DNA of 64,000 nucleotides from Actinomycetota bacterium. Lineage in GTDB: Bacteria > Actinomycetota > UBA4738 > HRBIN12. Positions 31,782 to 58,539 of the stretch are shown here, one piece after another. Made by a program: the position numbers and the translations under genes. The notes under the pieces are model-generated. The model made no database searches. It saw only the letters and a list, made by a program, of their open reading frames with translations, and had not been told where the DNA came from. The first letter of the stretch is position 1, and every line of letters starts with the position of its first letter. The stretch spans positions 96,360 to 160,359 of the forward strand of contig JAXLTF010000005.1 in NCBI GenBank assembly GCA_046330185.1, read 5' to 3'.

Positions 31782-33137
31782 ATGCAGGACATGCACCGGT
31801 ACACCGACGAGACGGAGGCGCTCTTCCGGGCGATCCGGGACCACGTCCGCCACCGGATCGCCACCCCTGCCCCGCTCGACGGCCCCGCCTCGGCCGAGAC
31901 GCTCGCCGCGGCCGCCGGCGCGACGATCACGCCGGCTGGGATCGGCGGGCCGGAGGCCCTGCGGATCTGGGCGGAGGTCCTCGCGCCCGCCACGGTCTCG
32001 ACCGACCACCCGGCCTTCCTGGCGTTCGTCCCCGGGGCTCCCAGCCGGGCGAGCGTCCTGTTCGACCTGGTGATCTCGGCGTCGTCCGCCTACGCGGGGA
32101 GCTGGCTCGAGGGGGCGGGCGCCGTCTGGGCCGAGAACCAGGCCCTGCGGTGGATCGCGGACCTCGCCGGACTCCCGCCCGGGGCCGGGGGATGCTTCGT
32201 GTCCGGAGGCACGAACGGGAACCTGTCCGCCCTGGTCGCGGCGCGACACACCATGGCCGCGCGGATGGGACGGCGGCCCGCGCGATGGAAGGTGGCCGCC
32301 ACCGACACCGTGCACTCGTCGGTCGCCTCGGCCGCCGCCGTGATGGACGTCGACGTGATCTCGGTCCCCCACGACGAGCGCGGACGACTCACCGGGGATC
32401 GCCTCTCGGCGCGCCTGGGCGAGATCGACTCCCGGGGACTGTTCGCCGTGGTGGCCAGCGCGGGGTCCACGAACGCCGGCGTCGTCGACGACCTGGCCGG
32501 CGTGGCCGAGGTGTGCGCCGAGCGGGAGGTCTGGTTCCACGTCGACGGCGCGTACGGGGGCGCCGGCCTGGTGGCTCCGTCGGTCCGCGATCGATTCACG
32601 GGCGTCGAGCACGCCGATTCATTCATCGTCGACCCCCACAAGTGGCTCTTCGCCCCCTTCGACGCCTGCGCCCTGCTCTATCGCGATCCCGCGCTGGCCA
32701 GGGCCGCGCATCGCCAGGAGGCGTCGTACCTGGACTCGCTGAACGCGACGCCGGACTGGAACGCCAGCGACTACGCCCACCACCTGACCCGGCGGGCGCG
32801 CGGGCTCCCCCTGTGGTTCTCGCTCGCCACGTACGGCACCGACGCCTACCGGGACGCGGTCGAACGGGTCCTCGCCGTCACCCGTGAGAGCGCCGACGAG
32901 ATCCGGAGCCGGGACGGGCTGGAGCTGGTCATGGAGCCGGAGCTCTCGGTGCTGCTCTTCCGCCGGCTCGGATGGTCCGCCGACGACTACGAGGCGTGGT
33001 GGCCGCGTCTGCTCGAGGAGCAGATCGGCTTCGTGCAGCCGACGACCTGGGCGGGCGAGAGGGTCGCTCGGCTCTGCTTCGTGAGCCCGCTCACGACACT
33101 CGACGACGTGAACGCGATCCTCGACGCGATGGCCTAG
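31782..33137 (+). CDS. group II pyridoxal-dependent decarboxylase (amino-acid / diaminobutyrate decarboxylase family)
   Basis: FVSGGTNGNLSALVAARH, HVDGAYGG, PHKWLFAPFDAC blocks; 451 aa. Confidence 0.8.
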   Translation: MQDMHRYTDETEALFRAIRDHVRHRIATPAPLDGPASAETLAAAAGATITPAGIGGPEALRIWAEVLAPATVSTDHPAFLAFVPGAPSRASVLFDLVISASSAYAGSWLEGAGAVWAENQALRWIADLAGLPPGAGGCFVSGGTNGNLSALVAARHTMAARMGRRPARWKVAATDTVHSSVASAAAVMDVDVISVPHDERGRLTGDRLSARLGEIDSRGLFAVVASAGSTNAGVVDDLAGVAEVCAEREVWFHVDGAYGGAGLVAPSVRDRFTGVEHADSFIVDPHKWLFAPFDACALLYRDPALARAAHRQEASYLDSLNATPDWNASDYAHHLTRRARGLPLWFSLATYGTDAYRDAVERVLAVTRESADEIRSRDGLELVMEPELSVLLFRRLGWSADDYEAWWPRLLEEQIGFVQPTTWAGERVARLCFVSPLTTLDDVNAILDAMA

Positions 33138-34027
33138 GCACCCGAGATCGGCGAGCCGCCACGGAGCTGCTGCCCGATCGCCTCCAGGCGCGCGATCCGC
33201 TCCTCGGTGGGCGGGTGCGTCGAGAACAGGTTCGCGAACCCACGGCCCTTCAGCGCAGCCATCGGGTTCATGATGAACAGGTGCGCCTCGGCTGGGCTCA
33301 CGCTGGACGGCGGCGGGACGCGCCGAACGCCCACCTCCAGCTTGCGGAGCGCGCCCGCCAGGGCCTCCGGGTCGTGCGAGAGGTACGCCCCCGACTCGTC
33401 GGCCTGGTACTCACGAGAGCGCGAGACCGCCATCTGGATGATCGCGGCCGCGATCGGGGCGAGGATCCATGCGAACAGCACGCCGAAGGCGCCGAGCGGG
33501 TTGCCGCCTCGGTCGTCGTTCCCGCCGAAGAACAACGCGAACCGCGCGAGGAACGTGATGCTCATGCCGATCGCGGCCGCGATCGAGGAGATGAGGATGT
33601 CGCGGTTCGCGACGTGGGAGAGCTCGTGCGCGAGCACGCCGCGGAGCTCGCGCTCGTCGAGGAGCTCCAGGATCCCCGCGGTCACCGAGACGGCCGCGTG
33701 CTTGGGGTTGCGGCCCGTGGCGAACGCGTTGGGCTGGGTCATCGCCGAGACGTAGATCGCGGGCATCGGCATGCCGCGCGCCTGGGTCAGCTCTCGGACG
33801 ATCCGGTACAGGGCCGGCTGCTCCTGCTCGGTCACCGGCTTCGAACGGGTCGTCGCGATCGCGATCTTGTCCGAGAACCAGTACATGCCGAAGTTGAACA
33901 GCAGGGCGAACCCCAGGGCCCAGACGGCCCCGGAGGTGCCGCCGATCCAGGCGCCGATCAGGACGAACAGGCCGCCCAGGGCGGCGATCAGGATCCAGGT
34001 CTTGACCCGATTGATCCCGGGCTGCAC
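33134..34027 (-). CDS. htpX: zinc metalloprotease HtpX (M48 family)
   Basis: N-terminal TMs; HELSHVANRDIL (HExxH); second pair of TMs; 297 aa. Confidence 0.85.
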   Translation of the reverse strand: MQPGINRVKTWILIAALGGLFVLIGAWIGGTSGAVWALGFALLFNFGMYWFSDKIAIATTRSKPVTEQEQPALYRIVRELTQARGMPMPAIYVSAMTQPNAFATGRNPKHAAVSVTAGILELLDERELRGVLAHELSHVANRDILISSIAAAIGMSITFLARFALFFGGNDDRGGNPLGAFGVLFAWILAPIAAAIIQMAVSRSREYQADESGAYLSHDPEALAGALRKLEVGVRRVPPPSSVSPAEAHLFIMNPMAALKGRGFANLFSTHPPTEERIARLEAIGQQLRGGSPISGA

Positions 34028-34149: not shown

Positions 34150-35619
34150 TCAGCTGCCGACCAGCGTCGAGATCCCCGCGGCGTCCGCGAACGGGGTCGG
34201 GAAGACGAACAGGGCCACGATCGCGATCGTCGCGAGGGCGACCACCGCGGTGACCAGCGCCGGCGACCTGAGCGGGGACTCGTCGACGGCCGGCTCGAAG
34301 ATCATCTCCCGCGGCACCGCCAGGTAGTAGTAGATGCTCACGACCGAGTTGATCAGCATGATCACCGCGAGCGAGAGGCCGAGCCCGCCGCCCCGGTCGA
34401 TGGCGACCCGGAAGATCAGGATCTTGGCCCAGAACCCGCCCGTCGGCGGGATCCCGGCCAGCGAGATCATGAACGTGGTCATCCCCACCGCCATCAGCGG
34501 AGCCGTCCGGATGAGCCCGGCGAAGTCCTTGAACAGCAGCAGTGGGTGACGGCGGCTGACCGCGGTCGCCACGGCGAACGCGCCCAGGTTCATCACGCCG
34601 TAGATCAGGATGTAGGCGACCGCCGCCGCGAACGCGTCCTTGTTCGTCGCGGCATCGTTCGTCACCAGCGCGAACGGGAGCAGCATGTAACCGGCCTGCG
34701 CGATACCGGAGTACGCGAGGAGCCGGACGACCTGGTTCTGCTGCAGCGCGACCAGGTTCCCCACCGACATCGTGGCGATCGAGAAGAACGCGAAGATCGG
34801 GACCCAGAACTCCCACTGCCCTATGAACGCCACGAACATCAGCTGCAGCAAGCCCGCGAAGCCCGCCGCCTTCGATGCCACCGCGAGGAACGCGGCGACC
34901 GGAACGGGGGCGCCCTCGTACGTGTCGGGGGCCCAGAACTGGAACGGGAACGCCGAGACCTTGAACGCGAACCCGACCACGACGAACAGGATCGCGGCCA
35001 GCGCCAGCGTCTCCTGGTCCGAGGGGAGGTTCCCCAGCCTGGCGGCGATCGCGGACAGGCCGGTCTCGCCGCGGGTCACGCCGTAGATGAGGCTCATCCC
35101 GAACAGCATCACGGCGGTCGACAGGACGCCGATCAGGAAGAACTTGAGCCCGCCCTCGTTCCCAAGCGGGTCCGCCTTGCGGAAGGCGGCCATCAGGAAG
35201 CCCGGGGCGGAGACCAGCTCGAGCGAGATGAACAGCAGCAGCAGGTCGCGGCTGGCCGGCATCAGCATGCAGCCCAGGAACGAGGTGAGCAGGAGGAAGT
35301 AGTACTCGCCCTGGTAGAAGCCTCCCTCCCGGAAGTAGCGGAGAGAGATCGCGAGCACCACGATCGCGACGACCAGGAAGAAGATCTGGAACAGCACCGC
35401 GAAGTTGTCGACGACGAACGTGCCTCCGAACGTCTCGCGCGGGAGGCTCCCCAGGAGGGTGAGCTCCGCGATCAGCGTCGCGACGACGCCGATCATCGAC
35501 AGCGGCATCGCGAGCCACTTGCGTTGAGGGGAGAGGAAGACGTCGACGACCAGGACCACGACGATGGTCCCGGACAGGATCAGCTCGGGCAGGATCGCGT
35601 GGTAGTCGATCGCGCTCAT
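34150..35619 (-). CDS. nuoN: NADH-quinone oxidoreductase subunit N (partial cluster 1)
   Basis: 489 aa antiporter-like subunit; MSAIDYHAILPELILSG. Confidence 0.9.
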   Translation of the reverse strand: MSAIDYHAILPELILSGTIVVVLVVDVFLSPQRKWLAMPLSMIGVVATLIAELTLLGSLPRETFGGTFVVDNFAVLFQIFFLVVAIVVLAISLRYFREGGFYQGEYYFLLLTSFLGCMLMPASRDLLLLFISLELVSAPGFLMAAFRKADPLGNEGGLKFFLIGVLSTAVMLFGMSLIYGVTRGETGLSAIAARLGNLPSDQETLALAAILFVVVGFAFKVSAFPFQFWAPDTYEGAPVPVAAFLAVASKAAGFAGLLQLMFVAFIGQWEFWVPIFAFFSIATMSVGNLVALQQNQVVRLLAYSGIAQAGYMLLPFALVTNDAATNKDAFAAAVAYILIYGVMNLGAFAVATAVSRRHPLLLFKDFAGLIRTAPLMAVGMTTFMISLAGIPPTGGFWAKILIFRVAIDRGGGLGLSLAVIMLINSVVSIYYYLAVPREMIFEPAVDESPLRSPALVTAVVALATIAIVALFVFPTPFADAAGISTLVGS

Positions 35620-35647
35620 CGGCGGCTCCCGGGGGCATCGGCCACGT

Positions 35648-37174
35648 CTACGCTCCGAACAACCCCATCAGCGACGCGACGGCGCTGTCGGTGACCCCGA
35701 ACACCAGCCGGGGGAACAGCCCCAGCACCAGGATCCCGACGAGCAGCGGGAGCCACGCGAGCCACTCGACCGTGAGGATGTCGCTGAACGGATGCTCCCG
35801 CCAGTTCTCCGGCATCACGCCCAGGTTCACCCGCTGGAGCATCCACAGGAAGTACCCCGCGGTCAGGATCGTCCCGATCCCGCCCGCGATCATGAACGCG
35901 CGGAACAACGCGACGTTCAGCCCCGGGCCGGGCTCGAACGAGGACAGCAGGGCCATGACCTCGCCCCAGAACCCGGCCAGGCCGGGGAGACCCAGGGACG
36001 CGATCGCGACGAACGCGAATATCCCGGCGAGCCTGGGCATCTTCTGGGCCATCCCGCCGCCGATGACCGCGATCTCTCGCGTGTGGTAGCGGTCGTAGAT
36101 GGACCCGACGCAGAAGAAGAGCATCCCCGTGATCACGCCGTGGGCGACCATGCCGAAGATCGCCGCCTGGATCCCGATCTCGGTGAGCGTCGCGATCCCG
36201 AGCATCACGAACCCCATGTGTCCGACGGAGGAGAACGCGATCAGGCGCTTCAGGTCCTTCTGCGCGAGGCACGCCAGGGCCGCGTAGACGATGGCGATCG
36301 CCGCCAACCCTCCGATCCAGGGCGCGTACGCCTGCGCGCCCTCGGGCAGGACCGGCAGCGCGATCCGGATGAACCCGTAGGTGCCCATCTTCAGCATGAT
36401 CCCGGCCAGCAGGACGGAGCCGATGGTGGGGGCCTCCGTGTGCGCGTCGGGCAGCCACGTGTGGAACGGCCACATCGGCACCTTGACGGCGAACCCGAGC
36501 GCCACCGCCCCGAACACGATCAGCTGGAACGTGTGGCTGAACCCGCCGCCGGCGCCGAACTCGGTCAGCCGTACCAGGTCGAAGGTGTGCGGCTCCGGAC
36601 CCTGGAAGTACATCGCCAGGAACCCCAGCAGCATGAAGATCGACCCAAGCAGGGTGTACAGGAAGAACTTGATCGCCGCGTACTCGCGGTTCGACGACCC
36701 CCAGATCCCGATCAGGAAGTACATCGGGACCAGCACCATCTCCCAGAAGACGAAGAACAGGATGAGGTCGAACGCGATGAACGTCCCGGCCATGCCGGTC
36801 TCGAGCAGCAGCATCAGGGCGATGAAGGCCTTGGTGCGGCCCGGGTCCGGCACGTACTTCCAGGTGTAGATCGCGCAGAGGAACGACAGGACGAAGGTCA
36901 GCACGTACAGCGGCATCGAGATGCCGTCGATCGCGACGTGGTAGCGGGCGCCGATCGCCGGGATCCACGGGACGTCGAGCGTGAACTGGAGCCCTCCGTG
37001 CGCGTAGTCGAAGCCCGCGGCGATCGCGATCGCCAGGACCAGGGCGGCGCCGCTGATGCCGATCCCCAGGCCGCGGGTCAGCCGATCCTTCTCCTTAGGG
37101 ATGAACATGATCACCAACGCGCCCGCCACGGGCAGCAGCGTGGTGATCGTGATCGCCGACTCCTGCCAGTTCAT
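35648..37174 (-). CDS. nuoM: NADH-quinone oxidoreductase subunit M (cluster 1)
   Basis: 508 aa; MNWQESAITITTLLPVAGALVIMFIPKEK. Confidence 0.9.
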   Translation of the reverse strand: MNWQESAITITTLLPVAGALVIMFIPKEKDRLTRGLGIGISGAALVLAIAIAAGFDYAHGGLQFTLDVPWIPAIGARYHVAIDGISMPLYVLTFVLSFLCAIYTWKYVPDPGRTKAFIALMLLLETGMAGTFIAFDLILFFVFWEMVLVPMYFLIGIWGSSNREYAAIKFFLYTLLGSIFMLLGFLAMYFQGPEPHTFDLVRLTEFGAGGGFSHTFQLIVFGAVALGFAVKVPMWPFHTWLPDAHTEAPTIGSVLLAGIMLKMGTYGFIRIALPVLPEGAQAYAPWIGGLAAIAIVYAALACLAQKDLKRLIAFSSVGHMGFVMLGIATLTEIGIQAAIFGMVAHGVITGMLFFCVGSIYDRYHTREIAVIGGGMAQKMPRLAGIFAFVAIASLGLPGLAGFWGEVMALLSSFEPGPGLNVALFRAFMIAGGIGTILTAGYFLWMLQRVNLGVMPENWREHPFSDILTVEWLAWLPLLVGILVLGLFPRLVFGVTDSAVASLMGLFGA

Positions 37175-37193
37175 CGGTGCCTCACGCTCCCTC

Positions 37194-39161
37194 TCACGCG
37201 ATCCTCACGAACACGATCGTCAGCGCGATCACGCCCACGAACAGCGCCACCGCGTACCACTGCACGTTGCCGCTCTGGATGAACCGGAGCGCGGCGCCGA
37301 AGCCGCGCGTCACCTGGCCGGCGCCGTTCACCGCGCCGTCGATGACGTTGCGGTCGAACCAACCGATCGCGCCGGACGCGCGGCGCGTGACGTGCGCGGC
37401 CCCGTTCACGATGCCGTCCAGCACGTGCTGGTTGAACCAGTAGGCCCCCGCCGAGACCGAGTCGCGTATCGGGTAGACGATGCCCCTCAGGTAGACGTCG
37501 TCCAGGTAGTACTTGTGCTCCAGGATCCGCGAGAGCGCGCCCAGCTCGAGCGTCGGGTCGGGGTCGCGGTACCTGCGGTACACGACGAAGCCCGCCACGG
37601 CTCCGGCCGCGGCCGCGGCCGTCGAGAGCAGCGCGACCCACGCCACGAAGCTGATCTCCTCCGGGTGCTCCAGGAAGACCCAGTCGAAGAACACGGCGCC
37701 GGTCGCCGCGGCCCCCAGGAGCCCGACGAACAGCGTGGCGCCGGCCAGCGCGACCAGGGGCCCGGTCATCGAGGCGGGCGACTCGTGCGGATGCGCCTCG
37801 CCCCGGTACTCGCCCGTGAACGTCATCATCACCATGCGGGCGGTGTAGAAGGCCGTGAGGAGCGCCGTGATCACGAAGACCGCGAAGGCGACCTCGTGTC
37901 CGACGGAGGCGGCCACCAGCAGCTCGTCCTTCGACCAGAAGCCCGCGAGCGGCGGGATCCCCGCCAGGGCGAGCGACCCGATCGCGAAGGTCCAGAACGT
38001 GATCGGCATCGGGCGTCGCAGGCCGCCCATCTCGCGCATGTCGTTCGAGTGCACGGCGTGGATCACCGAACCAGCGCCCAGGAACAGGAGCGCCTTGAAG
38101 AAGGCGTGGGTGAACAGGTGGAAGAACGCGGCGTTGCGCCCGGCCTCTCCTAGCGACATCGCGAGCACCATGTATGCGAGCTGCGAGACCGTCGAGTACG
38201 CCAGGACCTTCTTGATGTCGAACTGGACCAGGGCAAGCAACGCGGCGCCGAGCATCGTGATGCCGCCAACGATGCCGACCACCTGCAGCACGAACGGGTC
38301 GGCTTCCAGGAAGACCTGGAACATGCGGCCCACCAGGTAGACGCCGGCGGCGACCATCGTGGCGGCATGGATCAGCGCCGAGACGGGCGTGGGCCCCGCC
38401 ATCGCGTCGGGGAGCCAGACGTGCAGCGGGAACTGGGCCGACTTGCCGATCGTGCCGCCGAACAGCAACAGCGCCGCGGCCGAGACCAGGGCCGGAGACA
38501 CGGCCGGTCCGCCGACCAGCTCGGAGATGGCCTGGATGTTCGAGGTCGTGAACCCGGTCGCGAAGATCAGCGCGAAGATCCCGAACATGAACGGAACGTC
38601 GCCGACGCGGGTCGTGAGGAACGCCTTGATCGCTGCGCTCGAGTTCTCCTTCGCCTCGTACCAGTGGCCGATCAGCAGGTAGGAGCAGATGCCCATGACC
38701 TCCCAGCCGACGAGCAACTGGATCAGGTTGTCGGCGATCACGACGTTCAGCATCGCGCCGGTGAACATCGACAGGACCACGTAGAACCACGTGAACCGCA
38801 CGTCGCCGTGCATGTACCCGAGCGAATAGACGTGAACGCAGAGCGAGACCGAGGTGACGACGACCAGCATCACCGCGGTGAGGCCGTCGACGTACTGGCC
38901 GAGCTCGACGTGGAACGGGCCCACCGAGAACCAGGGGACGCTGCTGGCGTACACGCTGCCGCCCTGGACGAAATGCCAGAGCACGGCGAGCGACATCACG
39001 AACCCGGCGCCCACGGCCGCGATCCCGAAGCCGGAGCCCTTGCCGGGGGCGCGCTTGCCGAAGAACAGGATCAGGGCGGCCGACACGAACGGCAGCAGGG
39101 CTATCACCCAGGTGTACCGGATGATCCCGGAGGCGGCCTCGTGCGCGGTCTCGGCTACCAC
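37194..39161 (-). CDS. nuoL: NADH-quinone oxidoreductase subunit L (cluster 1), long form with C-terminal extension
   Basis: GTG start overlapping the nuoK stop; [23 protein letters not shown]-terminus; about 656 aa. Confidence 0.85.
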
Positions 39162-39457
39162 TTGAGCAGGTTCACCTCGTCCACGTTGATCGTCGCGCGA
39201 TTGCGGAACAGCAGGATCACGATCGCCAGGCCGATGCCGACCTCGGCGGCCGCAACGGCGATCACGCACCGCGCGCACACCTGACCCGTGATGTCGCCGA
39301 GCTGGGAGGCGAACGCGACCAGGTTCACGTTGACCGCGTTCAGCATCAGCTCGATCGACATGAGCACCATCACAGCGTTGCGGCGCGCCAGGACCCCGTA
39401 GACCCCGGCCGAGAACAGGAACGCCGAGAACATCAGCACGAGCGGCAGCCGGATCAC
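39155..39457 (-). CDS. nuoK: NADH-quinone oxidoreductase subunit K (cluster 1)
   Basis: About 100 aa from a GTG overlapping the nuoJ stop (GTGA); the upstream track ORF portion is R/P-rich. Confidence 0.8.
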
Positions 39458-39960
39458 GAGCCCTCGTCCTTGCGGGCCAGGACCACCGCGCCGATCAGGG
39501 CGGCCAGGAGCAGGAACGAGATCGCCTCGAACGGCAGGATGTAGGACCGGAACATCACGGACCCGATCTGCTCGGTAGTCGCGTGGGCGGGCTCGAACGC
39601 CCAGGCGTCCCCGCGGACGTCGAAGGCGTCCTGGATCATGAAGACCAGGCCGGCGAAGATCCCGATCCCGACGAGGGCCCCCAGCCACCGCCGCTGGTTG
39701 TCCAGCGCGTCACGGCCGATCGGCGCCTTCGTGAGCATCAGGCCGAACAGGAACAGGATCACGATCGCGCCCACGTAGATCAGGATCTGGACCCAGGCGA
39801 CGAACTCGGCCCCGAGGACCAGGTAGACGCCGCCCACCGAGAGCAACGACAGGACCAGGTACAGGGCGGCGTGGACGACGTTGCGGGCGGTCACGACCGC
39901 GATCGCCGATGCCGACCCGACCACGGCGAGGACGATGAACGCGTACTCCTGTCCCGACAC
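39454..39960 (-). CDS. nuoJ: NADH-quinone oxidoreductase subunit J (cluster 1)
   Basis: [43 protein letters not shown]; start approximate. Confidence 0.8.
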
Positions 39961-39962
39961 GC

Positions 39963-40514
39963 CTATGCGCCCTCCCCGACCGCGGCCGGCTCCGGGGATG
40001 CCTCGGCCTCGACCGCCTCGGCGCCCTCCTCGAGCGGCGGCGGTGGCAGCACCGTGTAGGTCCACTCCTCGAGCCGCTCCTTCTCGTGCGTCATCAGGTC
40101 GATCTCGTGCTCCCCGTACTCGAACTCCGGGCTCCAGAACAGGGCGTCGAACGGACAGACCTCAACGCAGATCCCGCAGTACATGCATAGCGCGTAGTCG
40201 ATCGCGAAGCGGTCGAGCACCTTGACGGAGCGCGCGCGGCCACCGCCGGCGGGCTCATGCGCCTCCTTGTGGGCATCGATGTAGATGCACCAGTCCGGGC
40301 ACTCGCGCGCGCACTTGTAGCAGACCGTGCAGTTCGCTTCCTTGAGGGCGATCACGCCACGGGTCCGGGCCGGGAGATCCGGCTTGACGTGCGGATACTG
40401 CTGCGTGACCGCGGGCTGCAGCATCGTCTTCAGCGTGACCCCGAGCCCCTTGAGCAGCCCCTGGCCGGCGCCGCTCTGCGGCGCGTCGTTGCGGTCCTCG
40501 GCGTCCGATGCCAC
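39963..40514 (-). CDS. nuoI: NADH-quinone oxidoreductase subunit I (2x[4Fe-4S]) (cluster 1)
   Basis: [12 protein letters not shown] and [12 protein letters not shown] ferredoxin motifs. Confidence 0.9.
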
Positions 40515-40536
40515 GACCCCTCCCTCCGACGCGTTC

Positions 40537-41544
40537 CTAATGGACCGCGACCTTCACGACCGCCACGACCATGATCTGCAGCAGCGCGAGCGGGATCAGC
40601 ACCAGCCAGGAGAACCGCTGCAGCTGATCCTCGCGCATGCGTGGGTAGGTGGCCCTGAGCCAGATCACGATGAACGAGAGCACGCCGATCTTGCCGAGCA
40701 TCATCAGCGGCCCGGGGATGGGGATCCCCGGTAGCGGCAGGTAGCCGCCCAGGAAGAGCACCGACGCGATCCCGGCAAGCGCCACGATCCCGCCGTACTC
40801 CGCCAGCAGGAAGAACGCGAACTTCAGCCCCGTGTACTCGGTGTATGCCCCGAAGATGATCTCGGAGTCGGCGACGGGCATATCGAACGGCGGCCGAGTG
40901 AGCTCGGCCAGCGACGCCATCATGAAGATCAGGAACCCGATCAGCTGCGGGATCACGAACCAGAAGTCGGTCTGTGCCTCGACGATCCCCACCAGCGAGA
41001 GCGTTCCCGCCTGCATCACGACCGCGGCGGCGGCGAGCACCAGCGGCAGCTCGTAGGCGATCAGCTGTGCCGCGGCGCGCAGGGCTCCGATCAACGAGAA
41101 CTTGTTGGCGGAGGACCAGCCGGCCATGAGCACGCCGATCACCGACACAGAAGACATCGCGAGCACGAAGAAGATCCCGATGTCGAGGTTGACCGCCCAG
41201 ACCGAGTCGCTGAACGGCAGCACGACCAGGATCGCGATGTACGGGATCATCGCCACGGCCGGCGCGAGCGAGAAGACGCTGCGGTCGGCCGCCTGCGGGA
41301 CGACGTCCTCCTTCTGCACGAACTTCACGCCGTCGGCGACGAGCTGAGCCCACCCGTGGAACGCCCCGGCCTCCATCGGGCCGAGCCTGGCCTGCATGTG
41401 CGCCAGGACCTTGTGCTCCAGGTACCCGATCGCCAGCGGCACGACCAGGAAGAACGCCAGCACGAAGACCGTCTTGACGATCACGACGATCCAGACGTTG
41501 TCGAACCACTGTTCGACGAACGACGCGCCGGCCTGCGCGATCAC
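40537..41544 (-). CDS. nuoH: NADH-quinone oxidoreductase subunit H (cluster 1)
   Basis: GTG start overlapping the nuoC stop; conserved ...[23 protein letters not shown]... Confidence 0.85.
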
Positions 41545-42068
41545 TCCTCCTCTTCCTCCTCGCCCTCCACGGCCCCCGGCCAGGGCTTCGCCTCGCGGGT
41601 CATCAGCGGGAAGTCCTTGCGGAGCGGGTGGCCCTCGAAGGGCTCGGAGAGGAGCAGCTTGACCGGCTTCGGATGGCCCTCGAACCGGATACCGAACATC
41701 TCGAGGACCTCCCGTTCGTGCCAGTCCGACGTGGGGAACAGGTCGGACACGGTCGGGCACACCGGGTCCTCATGAGGCAGGACGACCTTCACACGGACGT
41801 TGTGGTGGTGAAGGGTCGAGAACAGATGCGTCACGACCTCGAAGCCCCGCTCCGGACCGAAGTCGACACCGCCCGTGAAGTCGCAGTAGTCGCAGGCGAG
41901 CTCGGGTTCGTCCCGCAGGAAGCGGCAGATGTCCCGGTAGCGCTCGACGGCGACCGTCGCCACCGCGTGCCCGTGCTGCTCGGCGACGTCGGCGATGTCG
42001 TCTCCGAAGCGGGCCCGCAGCCGGGCGGCGACGTCCTCAGGCGTGAGCCGGCGCGGCGTCCCGACCAC
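41541..42068 (-). CDS. nuoC: NADH-quinone oxidoreductase subunit C (30-kDa) (cluster 1)
   Basis: [20 protein letters not shown] and PLRKDFP motifs; 175 aa; followed directly by nuoH with no nuoD. Confidence 0.85.
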
Positions 42069-42549
42069 CGAACTTCTCCTGGATGTCCTCGTCCTTGATC
42101 TTCTGCTGCAGCATCACGATGCCGTGCAACAGGGCCTCGGGCCGCGGCGGGCACCCCGGGACGTACACGTCCACGGGGACGATCTGGTCCACGCCCTTCG
42201 TGACCGAGTAGGAGTCCCAATACGGTCCGCCGCAGTTGGAGCACGACCCGAACGAGATGACGTACTTCGGATCGGGGATCTGGTCGTACACGCGCTTGAG
42301 AGCGGGGGCCATCTTGTCGGTCAGGGTCCCGGCGACGATCAGCAGGTCGGCCTGCCTGGGGCCGTGCGCGAACGGGATCACGCCGAGGCGGATGAAGTCG
42401 TGCTTGGATGTGGAGGTCGCGATCAGCTCGATCGCGCAGCATGCCAGCCCGAAGTTCATCACCCACAACGAGTAGCGGCGTCCCCAGTTCAGGAGGAACT
42501 TCACGGGCTGGATCCGCGGCAGGGGGGTCCGCTCGGTGATCAGGCCCAC
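42037..42549 (-). CDS. nuoB: NADH-quinone oxidoreductase subunit B (cluster 1), N2 cluster ligands retained
   Basis: [18 protein letters not shown] and PGCPP cysteine motifs; start adjusted to a GTG 8 nt before the nuoA stop. Confidence 0.85.
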
Positions 42550-42947
42550 GTCAGCACGCCCTTCTTCCAGGCGTAGAGCAGCCCCACGGCCAAGATCCCG
42601 ATGAAGATGCCCATCTCGACGACCGCGGTGTACCCGAGCGACTCGAAGACCCGCGCCCACGGGAACAGGAACACGCTCTCCACGTCGAACACCACGAAGA
42701 GGAACCCGTAGACGTAGTAGCGGATCTGGCTCTGCGACCATCCCTCGCCCACCGGGTCGATCCCGCACTCGTAGGTGGTGAGCTTGGCGGGGAGCGGCCG
42801 GCGGGGGGCGATCAGGCGGGCGGCCCCGAAGGCCACGGCCACGAGCGCGGCCCCAGCGATCACGACCGCGAGCACGACGCCGTAGGACTGGTAGTAGCTA
42901 GTCACGCTTGTGAACGCTTTCCCGAGCGCGGATCCTAGCAGGATCAC
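42540..42947 (-). CDS. nuoA: NADH-quinone oxidoreductase subunit A (cluster 1)
   Basis: [12 protein letters not shown]...[11 protein letters not shown]; starts 1 nt after the polyprenyl synthase stop. Confidence 0.85.
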
Positions 42948-43961
42948 TCATCGCGGATCCTCAGCTCCGCAGCGGGCCGCCAGGAAGCGCGCGAGCTGCC
43001 GGAACGCGTGGCGGGCGGGCCCGTCGGGAAGCGTCCGCGTGAGCCGGATCGCGCGTTCCACCTCCTCCGTCACCGCCCGTCGAGCCGCCTCCACCGAGCC
43101 CCCGCCCTGCACGATCTCGAGCGCTCGATCCAGCAGCTCGCCGTCGGGCGGTCCGTGCGACAGGATGCGCGCCAGCTCCGCGCGGTCCGGGTCGTGGGCG
43201 AGCGCGTGGAGCACGGGAAGCGTGTACACGCCCTCCTTCAGATCCTGCCCGGGCTCCTTCCCGAGCTCGAGCTGGGTCGAGGTGATGTCCATGATGTCGT
43301 CCGACAGCTGGAAGGCCATGCCCAGGGCGTGGCCGAACGCCTCCAGGACGTCGATCTGCTCGATGGTTGCATCCGAAAGCATCCCGCCCAGGCGGCACGA
43401 GGTGCCGATCAACCACGCGGTCTTGCGGCGGATGATCTCGAGGTAGGCCTCCTGCTCCTGTTCGACCCTGCCCGCGGCGTCCACCTCCCGGATCTGCCCG
43501 TCGCACAAGATCGCGATCGTCCGGGCGAGGAGGCGGCAGACCTCGGTCCCCAGCTCCGTCGAGATCTCCGACGCGCGCGCGAACAGGAAGTCGCCGGTGA
43601 GGATCGCGACCGTGTTGTCCCAGCGCAGGTTCGCCGAGGGCGAGCCGCGACGGCTCTCGGCCTCGTCGATCACGTCGTCGTGGTACAGCGTGGCGAGGTG
43701 GACCAGCTCGATCGCGACCGACCCGGGGATCAGGCGGGGATCGGCGGCGTCGCCGAAAGTGCCGGCCAGCAGCACCAGCATCGCCCGGAAGCGCTTGCCG
43801 CCGGCCGCGATCAGGTACGACGAGGTCTCGGACAGCAGCCCGGAGGTCTCGACCCGGACCGCCTTCTCGAGCGCCTCCTCCACCCGGTCCAGCCGGCCAC
43901 GGATCTCCGCTTCGAGGGCCGGGTCCGGCGACTCCAGCCCCGGGAGCACGCGAAGGCTCAT
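42948..43961 (-). CDS. polyprenyl diphosphate synthase (trans-isoprenyl diphosphate synthase family), embedded between the two nuo sets
   Basis: FARM LYHDDVIDEAESRRG and second motif FQLSDDIMD; start ATG 4 nt after the nuoN2 stop. Confidence 0.85.
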   Translation of the reverse strand: MSLRVLPGLESPDPALEAEIRGRLDRVEEALEKAVRVETSGLLSETSSYLIAAGGKRFRAMLVLLAGTFGDAADPRLIPGSVAIELVHLATLYHDDVIDEAESRRGSPSANLRWDNTVAILTGDFLFARASEISTELGTEVCRLLARTIAILCDGQIREVDAAGRVEQEQEAYLEIIRRKTAWLIGTSCRLGGMLSDATIEQIDVLEAFGHALGMAFQLSDDIMDITSTQLELGKEPGQDLKEGVYTLPVLHALAHDPDRAELARILSHGPPDGELLDRALEIVQGGGSVEAARRAVTEEVERAIRLTRTLPDGPARHAFRQLARFLAARCGAEDPR

Positions 43962-43965
43962 CGGC

Positions 43966-45417
43966 TCACCATCGCAGCACCGACGCCTGCTGCAGGATCT
44001 CCGACAGCAGGCCAGGGAAGATCCCGAGCACCAGCGTGAGCACCGCCGGGATCGCGATCGCCACACGCGGGGCCACGGACGGATCGCGGGAGTGCTCCCC
44101 CTGAGGTTCGTGCATGTACATCAGGACGATCAGGCGCAGGTAGAAGAAGGCCGCCACGACGCTCGACACGACCCCGATCAGCGCGAGCGACCAGTACCCC
44201 GCGTCGATCGCCGCGCCGAAGACGCCCGCCTTCGCGATGAAGCCGACCGTCGGCGGGATCCCGGCCAGGGAGAGCAGGAACAGGGTCATCAGGCCGGCCA
44301 GCAGCGGCGAGCGACGGGCGAGGCCCGCGTACGCCCCGAACGACGTCTGCTCCTCGCCCCGCGCGGACACGAGCATCACGATGCCGAACGCGCCCAGGAT
44401 CATGACGGCGTACGCGATCAGGTAGAACATCGCCGCCCGGATGCCGGTCTGGTTCGCCGCCGTCAGGCCGGTGAGGATGAACCCGGCGTGGGCGACGCTC
44501 GAATACGCCAGCATCCGCTTCACGTCGGTCTGGGCGATCGCCAGGACGCTCCCCACCACCATCGAGAGCGCCGCCAGCGCCCAGATCACGGGCGTCCAGT
44601 CCCACGTGATGGGCTGGAACGCCACGTCGAGCACCCGGATCAGCGCCATGAACGCGGCGACCTTGGTCGCGGCCGACATGTACGCAGTCACCGGCGTCGG
44701 CGCGCCCTGGTAGACGTCCGGGGTCCACATGTGGAACGGCGCGGACGAGACCTTGAAGGCGAACGCGACCGCCAGGAACGCGAACGCCAGCAGCACGATC
44801 GCCAGGTCGTCGGTCGAGCCCGTCAACGCGTTCGCGATCGCGCGGATCTTCGTCGTGCCGGTGGCGCCGTAGGCCATCGCCACGCCGTAGAGGAAGAAGG
44901 CCGACGAGAACGCCCCGAGCAGGAAGTACTTCATCGCCGCCTCGCTCGAGCTACGCCGGCCGGTGATCCCGGTCAGCACGTACAGCGACAGCGAAAGGAT
45001 CTCGAGCGCCAGGAACGTCACGATCAGGTCGTTCGCGGCCGTGATCAGCGTCATCCCGGCCGTGGCGAACAGCAGCAGCGGATAGAACTCACCACGCGGC
45101 TCGTCGCCGGAACGCGCGAAGTAGTGCGCGCCGTAGACCAACGCGAGCGCGGCGATGGCGACCAGCAGGACGCGGGCGACGACCGAGAACCGGTCGACCG
45201 CCACCATCCCCTGCAGGGCGGTCTGGCCTCCCTCGTGGTTCCAAAGGAGCATCGAGGCCGCGGCGGCCCCGGCGAGCCCGATCGCGGCCACCAGGACGTG
45301 TATCCGGCGATCGGATCGACGGGCGAACGCCTCGTACAGCAGCCCCACGATCGCCGCCGCGCACAGGACCAGCTCGGGGAGGATCGGGACGAGGTCGATC
45401 TCCGGGGTGCGGATCAT
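43966..45417 (-). CDS. nuoN: NADH-quinone oxidoreductase subunit N (complete cluster 2)
   Basis: Starts [16 protein letters not shown] at an ATG overlapping the nuoM2 stop (ATGA); the track ORF 43966..47025 is a read-through artefact. Confidence 0.85.
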
Positions 45418-46963
45418 GACCCCCCCTCCGTCGATGGCGGCGCCAGCGCGAGCGCGGGCTGCCCGAGGTCGGTCTGCTGCCCGGCCGGCGCGACGTGCCG
45501 CACGACGGCCGACGTGGTCGGGTCGATCCGGTCGGTGACCACCTTGGGGTAGACGCCGAACACCAGCAGCAGGGCCAGCACCGGAGCGAGCAGGACCACC
45601 TCCCGCAGGCTGACGTCGGGCAGGTGACGATGATCCTCGTCCCGGACGGGCCCGAACGCCATCCGCTGGTAGGACCACAGCAGGTAGATCGCGGCCAAGA
45701 CCACCGCGACGGCCGCGAGCGACCCGAACCACGGATCGACCATGAACGCGCCGGCGATCACCAGGAACTCGCCGACGAAGTTGTTCAGCCCGGGCAGACC
45801 GATCGACGCCAGGACCACGAACAGGAACGCGCCGGTGAGCCACGGCATGATCGTCGCCAACCCGCCCATCCGGGCGAGGTCGCGCGTATGCGTCCGTTCG
45901 TAGACCATGCCGACGACCAGGAACAGCGCGCCGGTCGACAGGCCGTGGTTGACCATCTGCAGCACGCCGCCGGTGGCGCCCTGCTCGGTGAACGCGAAGA
46001 TGCCCAGCACCACGAACCCGAGGTGCGACACGGACGTGTACGCGACGAGCCGTTTGAGGTCGGTCTGCATCAGCGCCACGACCGCGCCGTAGACGATCCC
46101 GATCACGGCGAGGACCGACACGGCGGTGGCGAAGTACCGAGAGGCCCCCGGGAACAGCGCCAGGTTGAACCGGATCAGGCCGTAGGCTCCGACCTTCAGG
46201 AGCACGCCCGCCAGGAGCACCGAGCCGGCCGTCGGCGCCTCGGTGTGCGCGTCGGGGAGCCAGGTGTGCAGCGGGAAGACGGGCACCTTGACAGCGAACG
46301 CCACGAAGAACGCCAGGAACAGCCACCGGGTGGTCGCGGGAGACAGCGCCCCGGCCACCTCGGTGAGGGCCCGCAGATCGAACGTGCCCGCGCCCAGCTG
46401 GGGGCCCGCTTTCGCGTACAGGAACAGGATCCCCACCAGCAGGAACGCCGATCCCGCCATCGTGTACAGGAAGAACTTCACCGCCGCATGGACGCGGCGC
46501 TCCCCGCCCCATCCGCCGATCAGGAAGTACATCGGGACGAGGATGGCCTCGAAGAAGATGAAGAACAGGAGCAGGTCTAGCGCGACGAACGAGCCGACGA
46601 CTGCGACCTCCAACGTCAGCATCGCCATGAAGTAGCGGCGGACGTTGCGCTCGATCGACCACGAGGCCAGGACCGAGACCGGCATCAGGAACGTCGTGAG
46701 CAGCACCATCCACAGGCTCACGCCGTCGACCCCGACCAGGTACCGCAGGCCGATCGCCGGCACCCACGACGCGTCCTCGACCATCTGGAAGCCGGGGACC
46801 TGCGCGTCGAAACGCCCGAGCACGGCGAGCGAGGCCACGAACGCGGCGAGCGTGGTGACGAGCGCGACGACCCGGGCGCCGTCGTCGGACAGGGACCTCC
46901 AGGCCAGCAGGATCGCGACGCCGACCAGCGGCAGGAAGGTCACCAGGGAGAGCAGGTGGTCGA

Positions 46964-46967
<4 letters not shown>
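45414..46967 (-). CDS. nuoM: NADH-quinone oxidoreductase subunit M (cluster 2)
   Basis: GTG start ([16 protein letters not shown]) overlapping the nuoL2 stop; about 517 aa. Confidence 0.85.
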
Positions 46968-48873
<1,906 letters not shown>

Positions 48874-48880
<7 letters not shown>

Positions 48881-49179
48881 CTGAGCTCCTTCAGCTCGTC
48901 CATGTTGACGGTGTGCCGACGGCGGTAGACCGAGACGATGATCGCGAGCCCGACGACGACCTCGGCGGCGGCCACGACCATCGAGAAGAACGCCAGCACC
49001 TGGCCGTCGAGGTTCCCGTGCATCCGCGAGAAGGCCACCAGCGCCAGGTTCGCTGCGTTCAGCTGGAGCTCGACCGACATGAACATCACGAGCGCGTTGC
49101 GACGGACCAACACGCCGACGCTTCCGACCGCGAACAGGATCGCGGACAGGACCAAGAAGTAGGCGATCGGGGTGCTCAC
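48874..49179 (-). CDS. nuoK: NADH-quinone oxidoreductase subunit K (cluster 2)
   Basis: 101 aa from a GTG overlapping the nuoJ2 stop; [19 protein letters not shown]... Confidence 0.8.
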
Positions 49180-49799
49180 GGGACGGGCTCCGCCTGCGCC
49201 GGGGCCGGCGAACCGCCCGGATCCGAAGGGTCGTCCGGGCCGGCCGCCGCCATCACCGCGGCGGCTTCCGCCTGGGTGATCGCGCGAGCCTTGCGGTGCG
49301 CCAGGATCATCGCCGCGATCGCCGCGATGATCAGCAGGATCGAGGTGACCTCGAAGGGGAAGAAGTAGTCCCGGAACAGCACGCGCGCGAGCGCCTGGGC
49401 GTTCCCGGGGGCGTTGACCTCGTCGAACCCGTCGGGGGCGAGGGTCGCGAACCCGATCCCGGCGCGGATCGCCAGGGTCACCTCGAGGACGAACGCGACC
49501 CCGAACGCGATCGCCAGCCAACGCTGGCCCGACAGCCGCTCGCGCAGATCCTCGGTCCGGTCGACGCCCAGCAGCATGATCACGAACAGGAACAGGACCA
49601 TGATCGCGCCCGCGTAGACGACGATCTGCACGGCGAACAGGAACGGCGCGTCGAGGATCAGGTAGAAGACGGCCAGGCAGAAGAAGTTCACGATCAGGAA
49701 CAGCGCCGCGTGGATCGCGTTGCGCATCATCAGCATCCCGATCGCGCTCGCCACCGAGATCGGCGCGAACACCCAGAAGGCCAGGAGGTCGGCCGGCAC
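49176..49799 (-). CDS. nuoJ: NADH-quinone oxidoreductase subunit J (cluster 2) with Pro-rich C-terminal tail
   Basis: [40 protein letters not shown]. Confidence 0.85.
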
Positions 49800-50294
49800 C
49801 TAGCGCCCCTCGCGGTCCACGGGATCGGTGCCCAGCTCGGGCGGACCCTCGAGCAGGCGCTCCTTCGTCCACACCGCGTCCTCGCGGCTCGTGAACGCGA
49901 GCTCGTAGTAGCTGGTGAGGGTGAGCGCCCGCGTGGGGCAGGCCTCGACGCAGAACCCGCACATGATGCAGCGCAGGTAGTTGATCTGGTAGTCCTTCGC
50001 GTACCGCTCCCCCGGCGACACCGGGTCATCGGGATCGTTGTCCGCGCCCTGCACCCAGATCGCGTCCGCGGGACACGCGTACGCGCAGAGCTCGCACCCG
50101 ATGCACTTCTCCAGCCCGTTCTCGTGCCGGTTCAGTCGGTGTCGGCCGATGTGGGAACGCTCGGGCGGAGGCACGATCTCGGCCGGGTACCGCTCGGTGT
50201 TGTCCCGGCGGAAGGTCTGCTTCCAGACGGTCCCCAGCCCCTTCGCGATGGCCGACGCCGCGTCCACGAACGTCCTCGGCTCGCGTTCGCTCAC
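49800..50294 (-). CDS. nuoI: NADH-quinone oxidoreductase subunit I (cluster 2)
   Basis: [12 protein letters not shown] and [12 protein letters not shown]; GTG start overlapping the nuoH2 stop; upstream 260 aa of the track ORF are junk. Confidence 0.85.
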
Positions 50295-58106: not shown

Positions 58107-58539
58107 CGACGGCCTCCCGCTCGGGCTCCTCCTCCGCCGCCGCGACGGGCTGTTCCGCTAGGCCCAGATCCTCCGACCAGTCCAGGCCCCCCTTCCGCCA
58201 CACGTACGCGTACGCGACGAACACCAGCGCGATGAAGACCGCCATCTCGACCAGCCCGAACAGGCCGAGGTTGCGGAACTCCACGGCCCACGGGAACAGG
58301 AAGATCATCTCGATGTCGAAGATGATGAACAGCATCGCGACCACGTAGAACTTCACCGGGAACCGCTCGCCCTTCGGGAGCCGGACCGGGTCGTTGCCGC
58401 ACTCGTACGGCATCAGCTTCACGGGGTTCGGCCGGTTGGGCCGCAGGAGCGACGACGCGAACAACGACGCCACGGCGAAGACGAACGCGAGGACCGCGAG
58501 GACCAGGATCGGCAGGTACTCGCTCAACACGGGCGGCAT
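58096..58539 (-). CDS. nuoA: NADH-quinone oxidoreductase subunit A (cluster 2)
   Basis: [11 protein letters not shown]...[11 protein letters not shown]. Confidence 0.9.

Follow-up and report, generated by a model that had tools for sequence, protein, structure and literature searches.

The window, a 64,000-nucleotide stretch of an Actinomycetota genome, carries ten tightly packed genes on its minus strand (42947-34150), identified by Pfam searches on the ORFs as nuoA2-B2-C2-H2-I2-J2-K2-L2-M2-N2 (Table 1). Six metagenome contigs with a NuoC identical to the NuoC2 of the window, whose genes were called independently, have the same gene set and lengths (170 aa for B, 175 aa for C and 335 aa for H). 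This is the actinobacterial "nuo2" operon, a second copy of complex I that has no N module and whose nuoD has been relocated outside the operon. A polyprenyl diphosphate synthase gene joins it to the complete nuo1 operon: a reading of the junctions places the start of the synthase gene 4 nt past the nuoN1 stop and its own stop directly against the GTG start of nuoA2 (0-nt gap). All these genes form a single co-directional array with no terminator-like site between them, and both the tandem order and the position of the synthase gene recur in every related locus (of 80) that extends far enough upstream. The M48 peptidase gene on the other side is also found downstream of nuo2 in loci L097, L102, L103 and L104, and is the sole conserved neighbor of nuo2-type clusters in other lineages.

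Table 1. Genes of the nuo2 region and its neighbors in the window
Gene	Position	Strand	Length	Features
M48 (HtpX-like) peptidase	33134..34027	-		PF01435; 122 nt downstream of nuoN2
nuoN2	34150..35619	-	489 aa	Final gene of the cluster; PF00361; conserved Glu and Lys motifs
nuoM2	35648..37174	-	508 aa	PF00361; FWE, KVP...WLPDAH, LKMGTYG and FWGE motifs
nuoL2	37194..39161	-	655 aa	Antiporter-like subunit; PF00361 and PF00662; a 17-residue motif and SKD
nuoK2	39155..39457	-	100 aa	PF00420; SIELM and AAAEVGIGL motifs; both membrane glutamates kept
nuoJ2	39454..39960	-	168 aa	PF00499, 142 bits
nuoI2	39963..40514	-	183 aa	2x[4Fe-4S] ferredoxin-type subunit; Fer4 families; NuoI/TYKY relatives in PDB
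nuoH2	40537..41544	-	335 aa	PF00146, 336 bits; PDB alignments
nuoC2	41541..42068	-	175 aa	Short NuoC; PF00329, 134 bits
nuoB2	42037..42549	-	170 aa	Carrier of Fe-S cluster N2; PF01058; CCAIE, GSC and GCPP motifs
nuoA2	42540..42947	-	135 aa	PF00507, 121 bits; YECG loop and FDVE motif
Polyprenyl diphosphate synthase	42948..43961	-	337 aa	PF00348, 213 bits; between nuoN1 and nuoA2
nuoA1-N1	43966..58539	-		Complete 14-gene operon directly upstream, with nuoD1, nuoE1, nuoF1 and nuoG1; Pfam, tblastn
nuoD1	55823..57088			Within nuoA1-N1; tblastn match at 55826-57088

The original prediction that the cluster lacks nuoD, nuoE, nuoF and nuoG proved correct. In all frames of positions 33900-44100, we found no remnant of NuoD with a profile HMM derived from 151 NuoD sequences, and none of D, E, F or G by phmmer with D1, E1, F1 and G1, so the frameshifted nuoD that the prediction had named as a counter-finding is not present. 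The sole weak match of the NuoD profile (7 bits) falls inside nuoB2 and most probably stems from NuoCD/NuoBCD fusions among the profile sequences, through their NuoB and NuoC portions. The nuoC2 stop (TGA, 41543-41541) and the nuoH2 start (GTG, 41544-41542) overlap by four bases (GTGA); therefore, there is no space for a further gene between them, in agreement with the earlier view that this junction is too tight for NuoD. The only NuoD in the window is NuoD1; the "adjacent nuoD2" proposed before does exist as a gene, but it is the nuoD of the complete operon upstream. The D-less order is kept in 80 of 80 related species-level genomes, with a C2-H2 gap of at most 135 nt between aligned ends in all of them and no D, E or F match within 10 kb on either side of nuo2 in any. 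Relatives of NuoC2 are present in more than 550 genomes.

That the operon has lost the gene for a central subunit could be taken as the mark of a decaying remnant, turning into functionless pseudogenes after nuoD was lost. We regard this as extremely improbable, and the selection and conservation data contradict it. The reading frames are free of frameshifts and internal stops, and the Fe-S ligands and proton-pump residues are retained across the subunits, none of which showed the degeneration proposed as a test. NuoB2, which is ~65% identical to mitochondrial PSST (mouse/bovine NDUFS7), keeps all the N2 cysteines, as had been noted, and NuoI2 has two CxxCxxCxxxCP motifs, each within a 12-residue stretch. 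NuoC2, with M. smegmatis NuoC as its best solved relative, ends in a conserved acidic tail of 18 residues whose motif is invariant in the family alignment (mean column identity, 84%). All ten nuo2 genes are under purifying selection, with dN/dS values against the closest relative (0.03-0.16) as low as or lower than those of the nuo1 genes and hepS (0.06-0.21). The same D-less order is found in Streptomyces, where nuo2 proteins have been seen by proteomics (PMC9739823). As for the long C-terminal extension previously ascribed to NuoL, it turned out to be a normal NuoL lateral helix. The true length of NuoL2 is 655 aa (the 694-aa ORF includes 39 extra upstream codons overlapping nuoK2), and since its alignment with the 656-aa T. 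elongatus NdhF1 covers both proteins over their full length and takes in the C-terminal amphipathic helix and the last transmembrane helix, the C-terminal part of NuoL2 is the canonical lateral helix plus anchor helix.

A second possibility raised earlier was that another protein takes the place of NuoD beside the ten subunits, for instance a large subunit of the [NiFe]-hydrogenase or formate dehydrogenase type with its gene elsewhere; a related reading does without a large subunit altogether. Homologues of NuoB, C, H and I do occur in Mbh and Hyc-type hydrogenases, and the one specific feature in favor of either reading is the missing nuoD. We consider both very unlikely, since every subunit resembles the chains of complex I much more closely than those of Mbh, Mbs or FHL (for example, 195 versus 114 bits for NuoB2 and 222 versus 40 for NuoH2), and neither the window nor the neighborhood of any of ~100 related clusters contains a hydrogenase or formate dehydrogenase large subunit. 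In addition, to our knowledge NuoC has no role beyond clasping NuoD, and here it is under purifying selection. Finally, orthologous clusters hold a genuine NuoD without NiFe cysteines.

These orthologous clusters are those of a Nitriliruptorales MAG (L096) and another MAG (L097), in which nuo1 and the polyprenyl synthase gene are followed by A2 B2 C2 D2 H2, with a short nuoD between C2 and H2; only L097 reaches N2, after which the M48 peptidase gene follows. Each of their genes matches the nuo2 paralogue best, and NuoB2 of the window is 82% identical to a Nitriliruptorales NuoB2. Therefore, the ancestral form was an 11-gene complex. Between the lineage of the window and the clusters with in-cluster D2, identity in NuoC2, which wraps around NuoD, amounts to only 37-40%, a point against the reading that we prefer below. 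Of 150 NuoD cluster representatives, the one nearest to the in-cluster D2 is the orphan family P0229 (57-58%), and the D2-type NuoD forms a distinct clade. The motif R(H/M/I)DW occurs in 80 of 80 D2 metagenome loci, 19 of them in-cluster and 61 orphan (including 3 on contigs too short for either neighbor). Its Trp62 aligns without gaps with T. thermophilus Nqo4 Tyr87, the quinone-binding residue, and Arg39 aligns with NDUFS2 Arg85, the site methylated in mitochondria. In soil metagenomes D2 more commonly stands alone, in many cases next to a gene for an NDUFAF7/MidA-type methyltransferase, with no nuo genes around it in the contexts examined, and it is also an abundant orphan in actinobacterial genomes. 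The TM5-6 loop of NuoH2 has a 10-residue sequence in place of PFDL(A/P)EAE(S/T)E, and this signature is common to all nuo2-type clusters, with or without nuoD. The identity of this quinone-site loop in both kinds of cluster suggests that the D-less ones still work with a D2-type partner.

No quinone pocket is possible without NuoD; therefore, the complex most likely uses a NuoD made elsewhere. It seems probable to us that nuo2 comes from an N-module-less operon A-B-C-D-H-I-J-K-L-M-N that lost its D gene here as in Streptomyces, and that NuoD is supplied in trans, preferably from an orphan D2 gene. Thus, supply in trans, one of the two options originally offered, has good support in principle (given the in-cluster D of orthologues, the orphan D2 genes and Streptomyces), and the non-canonical partner has none. 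All other parts needed are encoded by the ten genes: a membrane arm whose four proton paths are intact (H/A/J/K, N, M and L, plus the lateral helix), a connecting Fe-S chain made up of the two NuoI clusters and N2 in NuoB, and NuoC as scaffold. The preferred partner would be a NuoD with Trp for the quinone-ligating Tyr and Arg at the mitochondrial methylation site. As the cluster has no NuoEFG of its own, electrons may travel from a donor via NuoI2 and then NuoB2 to menaquinone, a transfer that would be coupled to proton pumping. We infer the presence of a D2 gene in this genome and its assembly with nuo2, as well as the electron donor and the quinone. Two further observations fit this reading less well. 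No electron-input gene is conserved beside nuo2 among the related clusters, and D2 is absent from the window and from the 10-kb surroundings of all 80 related clusters, the orphan D2 genes that could be placed taxonomically belonging to Nocardioidaceae/Propionibacteriales MAGs, outside this lineage.

The absence of a nearby D2 would also agree with a hybrid isoenzyme, in which the lineage has no D2 gene and the nuo2 products combine with NuoD1, perhaps also with NuoE1, F1 and G1, into a further NADH:menaquinone oxidoreductase that differs in its membrane arm and connecting subunits. Because the array is co-directional and without a terminator-like site, D1, E1, F1 and G1 can be co-expressed with nuo2, and the short gaps and conserved tandem order fit the sharing of NuoD1, which would be the fallback partner. 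Moreover, one nuoEFG set has been proposed to serve two complexes in Syntrophobacter (PMC4453560), and work on Streptomyces has raised the idea of a hybrid machinery (PMC9239103). Adjacency is no proof of sharing, because the L096 and L097 clusters, with their own D2, also lie behind nuo1. We consider the hybrid unlikely: the paralogues are old and divergent (38% identity in C, 28% in I, 39% in H), so NuoD1 would need two very different partner sets; the NuoH2 loop is exactly that of clusters owning a Trp-type D2, whereas NuoD1 is of the Tyr type; and Streptomyces keeps a separate nuoD2 despite its full nuo operon (PMC3765725).

A D-less nuo2 operon is not new. The original prediction stated that known 11-subunit complexes all keep NuoD, but the novelty that this implied overlooks the Streptomyces cluster, annotated for years. 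In S. coelicolor, nuo2 is SCO4599-SCO4608 (nuoA2, B2, H2-N2), with nuoD2 at a separate locus (PMC3765725, PMC8388888); its function has been called unclear (PMC9239103). Both systems have ten genes in the same order without nuoD, E, F or G, and in both a NuoC is encoded between B2 and H2, though in Streptomyces it is often not annotated as one. The order A2-B2-C2-H2-I2-J2 is identical in the window and a Streptomyces MAG cluster (79% identity in NuoB2, 69% in NuoI2 and 61% in NuoH2), and a 15-residue stretch of the NuoH2 TM5-6 loop is the same. However, nuo2 lies here head to tail behind a full nuo operon and the polyprenyl synthase gene, whereas published locus numbers put some 20 genes between nuo (SCO4562-75) and nuo2 in S. 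coelicolor; NuoC2 has 175 aa in the window versus 291 aa in the Streptomyces MAG; and the orphan nuoD2 is documented in Streptomyces, whereas in the present genome we infer it.

Cyanobacterial/plastid NDH-1, archaeal Fpo and bacterial NUO11 likewise have no NuoEFG and conserve A, B, C and H-N. Of the solved structures, NdhF1 is the nearest match to NuoL2, and the orthologous clusters with in-cluster D2 have the exact 11-gene layout of NUO11. They differ in that the D gene of the window cluster lies outside the operon and that nuo2 coexists with, and is here physically joined to, a full 14-gene operon; NDH-1 and Fpo also keep the Tyr that is Trp in the D2 partner. Neither FpoF nor any of NdhS, V and O, the subunits that dock ferredoxin, turned up near nuo2. 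With 14-subunit complex I (T. thermophilus Nqo1-14, E. coli NuoA-N, M. smegmatis), nuo2 shares the folds, the N2 and N6a/b ligands, the pump Glu and Lys residues and the lateral helix, but four of the 14 genes are missing, the NuoH2 loop has Val/Ile/Leu at the usual first Glu of the EAE motif, and identity to the canonical paralogues in the window is only 28-52%, nuo2 being an old paralogue of complex I. As in systems with a shared nuoEFG, a second, incomplete nuo set could borrow its missing subunits from the first; there, however, EFG alone is single copy, whereas nuo2 also lacks D, for which relatives have a dedicated D2 type. To earlier knowledge, our analysis adds the D-less order in 80 of 80 genomes, the ancestral in-cluster D2, the Trp-type D2 clade, its mainly stand-alone occurrence in soil metagenomes and the nuo1-polyprenyl synthase-nuo2 array.

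The minus strand of the window carries a complete 14-gene nuo operon (nuo1), followed by a polyprenyl diphosphate synthase gene and by a second nuo cluster of ten genes (nuo2) in the order A2-B2-C2-H2-I2-J2-K2-L2-M2-N2. From an FAD-dependent reductase gene, which may resemble those of menaquinone/geranylgeranyl reductases, to the M48 peptidase gene behind nuo2 the genes are co-directional and tightly packed: 4 nt separate the nuoN1 stop from the synthase start, the synthase stop is directly followed by the nuoA2 start (0 nt), and nuoC2 and nuoH2 overlap by four bases (GTGA). Independent gene calls on six metagenome contigs encoding an identical NuoC2 match the nuo2 coordinates. Scans for sigma-70 promoters and terminators over the array gave nothing above chance, a search of limited value in actinobacteria, and nuo1, the synthase gene and nuo2 are probably a single transcription unit in this lineage.

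Coordinates of the respiratory gene array in the window and of NuoD2 (D2) sites in other loci (L, genome or metagenome loci compared with the window)
Feature	Location	Strand	Basis
FAD-dependent reductase gene, FAD_binding_3 family	59803-58556	-	
nuo1, complete nuoA-N operon, nuoD/E/F/G included	58539-43966	-	Pfam
Polyprenyl diphosphate synthase gene	43961-42948	-	
nuo2, ten genes	42947-34150	-	Pfam and gene order
M48/HtpX-type peptidase gene	34027-33134	-	
In-cluster D2	L097:11217-12296; L096:12340-13416		
Orphan D2 / PF02636 neighbour sites	L093:8596-9396; L094:6033-7007; L123:10595-11695; 35 further metagenome loci in L111-L178		

The rest of the window codes for transporters, a helicase, an MttB homologue, an amidohydrolase, an AbiE toxin-antitoxin pair and heme A/O synthesis genes. 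Just upstream of the respiratory array, an ORF with a COX15/CtaA (heme A synthase) domain continues without a break into the beginning of a UbiA/CtaB-type prenyltransferase domain (61046-62416, plus strand), as a CtaA-CtaB fusion or else as two genes that overlap. The stretch 21371-25899 has a lower GC content (0.64 versus about 0.70) and probably represents a small mobile or defense islet; it encodes a DUF4238 protein, an AbiEi/AbiEii type IV toxin-antitoxin pair with a WYL domain, and an HTH_17 protein. The MttB-family (trimethylamine methyltransferase-like) gene (13584-15509, minus strand) adjoins an FAD amine-oxidase-like gene and a cupin-HTH regulator, a setting typical of non-pyrrolysine MttB homologues acting on quaternary amines.

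The original prediction was of a cluster without nuoD, nuoE, nuoF, and nuoG, and this was borne out, since the ten genes are contiguous and leave neither space for the missing ones nor any remnant of them. In the six frames of 33900-44100, no trace of the four genes was found with a profile HMM of 151 NuoD sequences or with phmmer using the D1, E1, F1, and G1 proteins, and tblastn recovered the NuoD of the full operon as the only one in the 64-kb window; these searches rule out a hidden or frameshifted nuoD in the cluster. Elsewhere in the 64 kb, we found neither an orphan nuoD nor hydrogenase or formate dehydrogenase genes.

The remaining subunits are well preserved. NuoB2 shares about 65% identity with mitochondrial PSST and, as had been predicted, retains all four N2 cysteines; NuoI2 has both CxxCxxCxxxCP motifs, and the key Glu, Lys, and His residues of NuoL2, NuoM2, NuoN2, NuoK2, and NuoA2 are all retained. 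The long C-terminal extension of NuoL2, which had also been remarked on, is not unusual: the protein (655 aa) can be aligned over its whole length with NdhF1 of Thermosynechococcus (656 aa), the amphipathic C-terminal helix and the last transmembrane helix included, so this region is the canonical lateral helix. Compared with the closest relative (L007), dN/dS is 0.03 to 0.16 for the ten nuo2 genes and 0.06 to 0.21 for the nuo1 genes and the synthase; dS is saturated at larger distances. Such values, together with the intact residues, rule out degenerate subunits and make pseudogenization of nuo2 very unlikely. Between lineages, no other nuo2 subunit diverges nearly as fast as NuoC2 (37 to 40% identity versus 52 to 82% for the others). 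It ends in a conserved R-x-AK-x-WPG-x-x-E motif (window 41541-41600; L095:704-1579; L096:10640-12238; L097:10537-11127) and an acidic or low-complexity tail that varies widely in length, giving a total length of 175 aa in the window and of 196, 291, and 532 aa in relatives.

One genome per species was scanned with an alignment of NuoC2 relatives, and more than 550 genomes had such a protein. The best 80 come exclusively from uncultured Actinomycetota/Actinomycetes MAGs and share the order B2-C2-H2-I2, with the aligned ends of C2 and H2 no more than 135 nt apart (one locus with a misassigned H hit was left out). None of these 80 loci has D, E, or F matches within 10 kb on either side of the cluster, and all those reaching far enough upstream have the order nuo1, synthase, nuo2. 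In a large and abundant group of soil actinobacteria, as yet uncultured, the D-less arrangement is both conserved and maintained by selection. A plasmid collection searched with NuoC2 contained only distant, irrelevant rhizobial nuo genes. The nuo1 and nuo2 gene sets are old paralogues, with identities within the window of 45% (A), 50% (B), 38% (C), 39% (H), 28% (I), 34% (J), and 52% (K).

Streptomyces annotations have included a D-less nuo2 operon (SCO4599-4608 type) for two decades, with the same ten-gene order, A2-B2-(C2)-H2-I2-J2-K2-L2-M2-N2, and likewise no nuoD/E/F/G. Among the matches of NuoB2 was a protein from a Streptomyces MAG (79% identity), on a contig with the order A2-B2-X-H2-I2-J2, in which X, a protein of 291 aa with a long tail of low complexity, is identified as a NuoC (PF00329, 109 bits). 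The window cluster is closer to this Streptomyces cluster (B2 79%, I2 69%, H2 61%) than to its own nuo1 paralogues (50%, 28%, and 39%, respectively), and a 15-residue segment of the NuoH2 TM5-6 loop is identical in the two. Because of the shared order, the B2 identity and the identical H2 loop, the window cluster belongs to the actinobacterial nuo2 family, an already known kind. For the Streptomyces locus (given as SCO4599-SCO4608), the literature calls the function "unclear" and considers that "a hybrid machinery" may arise together with the main operon (PMC9239103); the proteins of the locus have been seen in proteomes (PMC9739823). Our literature search found no experiment showing which NuoD assembles with nuo2.

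In two clusters of NuoB2 relatives, L096, from a Nitriliruptorales MAG (82%), and L097, from a MAG labeled Acidobacteria (79 to 82%), a short nuoD (359 to 360 aa) lies between C2 and H2. In both cases nuo1 and a polyprenyl synthase gene precede the cluster, and every gene has the nuo2 paralogue as its best match; of the two, only L097 reaches N2, followed by the M48 peptidase gene as in the window. Since these orthologous clusters hold nuoD between C2 and H2, the ancestral nuo2 was an 11-gene operon without the N-module. The L097 MAG (GCA_016208485.1, JACQXY010000003.1) may be misbinned or mislabeled; it has the actinobacterial synteny nuo1, polyprenyl synthase, nuo2, M48 peptidase and 69% GC.

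With NuoD1, the NuoD of the full operon (55823-57088), as query, 1.8 billion cluster representatives yielded 150 NuoD representatives for comparison. The nearest to the in-cluster D2 of L096 and L097 was P0229 (57 to 58%), a 400-aa NuoD alone on its contig, which belongs to a large and highly conserved family in Nocardioidaceae/Propionibacteriales MAGs, with no nuo neighbors on megabase contigs. The in-cluster and orphan proteins share the signatures GYMHRG, RHDW and a C-terminal FFVVGD(V/I)D(R/K), and D2 does not have a segment (about 40 aa in NuoD1) that is present in both NuoD1 and Thermus Nqo4. A metagenome scan with the D2 alignment recovered 80 loci, all with R(H/M/I)DW, 19 of them in-cluster (A2-B2-C2-D2-H2...) and 61 orphan (3 of the 61 too short to see either neighbor). 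These data give a testable picture in which the missing subunit is from a recognizable clade, still inside the operon in some lineages. Other high-GC representatives (P0198, P0210, and P0214) were discarded as in-cluster genes of unrelated 11-subunit or partial clusters, almost none of the candidate NuoD representatives gained a name from its 90% cluster, and for two other 11-subunit clusters (L087 and L090) identities to the nuo2 subunits and D2 and to the nuo1 subunits and D1 were too similar to separate.

The quinone head group has two ligands in Thermus thermophilus Nqo4, His38 and Tyr87, which in a gap-free alignment correspond to His13 and Trp62 of D2. The Tyr87 position is Tyr in 125 of the 150 representatives and Trp in only 7, while Trp is clade-wide in D2 (80/80 metagenome loci, in-cluster and orphan alike). 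The TM5-6 loop of NuoH, which lines the quinone cavity, also differs: it reads PFDMP(V/I/L)A(D/E)(S/A)E in NuoH2 (window 40537-41544, residues ~215 to 230) versus PFDL(A/P)EAE(S/T)E in NuoH1. In the 10-residue signature of the nuo2-type loops (H2 of L001-L110), the first Glu is replaced by Val, Ile, or Leu and the second by Asp or Glu; the signature is found in all nuo2-type clusters, with or without an in-cluster D2, and NuoH2 covaries with D2. The Y87W change has been described in the NuoD of piericidin-producing Streptomyces, where it was read as self-resistance, and in model enzymes, where it gives inhibitor resistance and low decyl-ubiquinone activity (Degli Esposti, 2015, PMC4758237). 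The sequences of the piericidin producers may represent the NuoD2 paralogue instead of a strain-specific self-resistance.

The commonest neighbor of orphan D2 is a methyltransferase gene of the NDUFAF7/MidA family (PF02636), found in L093, L094, and 37 orphan metagenome loci. Among the 42 orphans whose sequence reaches far enough downstream, 27 have it on that side in opposite orientation; it lies within 300 nt of D2 in 14 loci. Arg39 of D2 aligns with Arg118 of the mouse NDUFS2 precursor (mature Arg85), where NuoD1 and Thermus have Thr; the NDUFS2 residue is dimethylated by NDUFAF7 (PMC3829151). The gene neighborhood is suggestive, though no proof, of a functional link between orphan D2 and the MidA/NDUFAF7 homologue. 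In one set of orphan loci (L111, L126, and about 14 others), large genes that by their sequence seem selA-like (selenocysteine synthase) and selB-like (selenocysteine-specific elongation factor) lie upstream of nuoD2.

The quinone pocket of complex I is built by NuoD together with NuoB and NuoH. NuoC carries no cofactor and, to our knowledge, has no role in established complex I structures beyond clasping NuoD. An intact and selected NuoB2/C2/H2/I2 set therefore implies a NuoD partner, and a functional complex with a NuoD provided in trans is very probable. On this point the original prediction had offered two options, of which a NuoD in trans is supported by the D2 of the orthologues and by orphan D2, while the non-canonical large subunit is unsupported. 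A partner of the hydrogenase or formate dehydrogenase type is indeed very unlikely, as no such gene exists in the window and the orthologous in-cluster D2 proteins have no NiFe cysteine pairs, with GPQHPSTHG at the N terminus and VVGDVDR at the C terminus instead.

As to the origin of the NuoD, we lean toward an orphan D2 elsewhere in this genome, because Streptomyces nuo2, to which the cluster is orthologous, comes with a separate nuoD2, the closest MAGs are labeled class Actinomycetes, like the orphan-D2 taxa, the H2 loop is the same as in D2-containing clusters, and orphans outnumber in-cluster copies in soil. NuoD2 from the relocated gene would then join the nuo2 products in trans. The main rival, given that the whole nuo1-synthase-nuo2 array is probably cotranscribed, is that nuo2 shares the NuoD1 of the full operon, which we regard as rather improbable. 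If it were so, we would have a clear example of two distinct proton-pumping modules that depend on a single catalytic subunit.

Beside nuo2-type clusters we found no conserved NuoEFG, FpoF-like or ferredoxin-docking gene; the one recurrent neighbor is the M48 peptidase gene. Taking the orphan D2 as the partner, we propose, as a tentative and rather speculative model, that nuo2 and a relocated Trp-type NuoD2, Arg-methylated by the adjacent MidA/NDUFAF7 homologue, might form a separate 11-subunit respiratory enzyme of soil Actinomycetota, without N-module and with a donor other than NADH. Its remodeled quinone site (Tyr87 to Trp in NuoD; first Glu of the NuoH TM5-6 loop to Val/Ile/Leu) would thereby make it insensitive to the piericidin- or rotenone-class inhibitors that neighboring actinomycetes produce. 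If the D2 picture is true, it would set this enzyme apart as a complex I variant whose quinone or inhibitor site is altered, and would provide a bacterial model for NDUFS2 arginine methylation. Specialists may find several side results worth pursuing: the in-cluster D2 of the ancestral operon, the quinone site of Trp type and its covariation with NuoH2, and the MidA neighbor.

Among known systems, Group 4 [NiFe] hydrogenases and formate hydrogenlyases (Mbh, Ech, Hyc) were discarded, as the window codes for no large subunit with NiFe cysteine pairs, and an Mrp-type antiporter was ruled out by the presence of NuoB/C/H/I and by the score of L2 against NuoL/NdhF (418 bits) versus MrpA (243 bits). 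A different 11-gene N-module-less nuo operon (L090/L091:6532-17227) includes a Tyr-type nuoD and is directly followed by a gene for pyruvate:ferredoxin oxidoreductase, which hints at ferredoxin as the donor for that type of operon; nuo2 has no such neighbor. Like the 11-subunit complexes without N-module (NUO11 / NDH-1 / Fpo), nuo2 has no NuoE/F/G, either in 33900-44100 or beside the orthologous clusters. Those complexes have an in-cluster NuoD, which is absent from the window and from the best 80 genome loci but present in the nuo2 orthologues L096 and L097 and in 19 metagenome loci. The full NuoA-N set of the canonical 14-subunit complex I is found in the upstream nuo1 and not in nuo2, from which four genes are absent, but nuo2 shares with it the N2 ligands of NuoB, the two 4Fe-4S motifs of NuoI, the Glu/Lys residues of L/M/N/K, and the lateral helix of NuoL.
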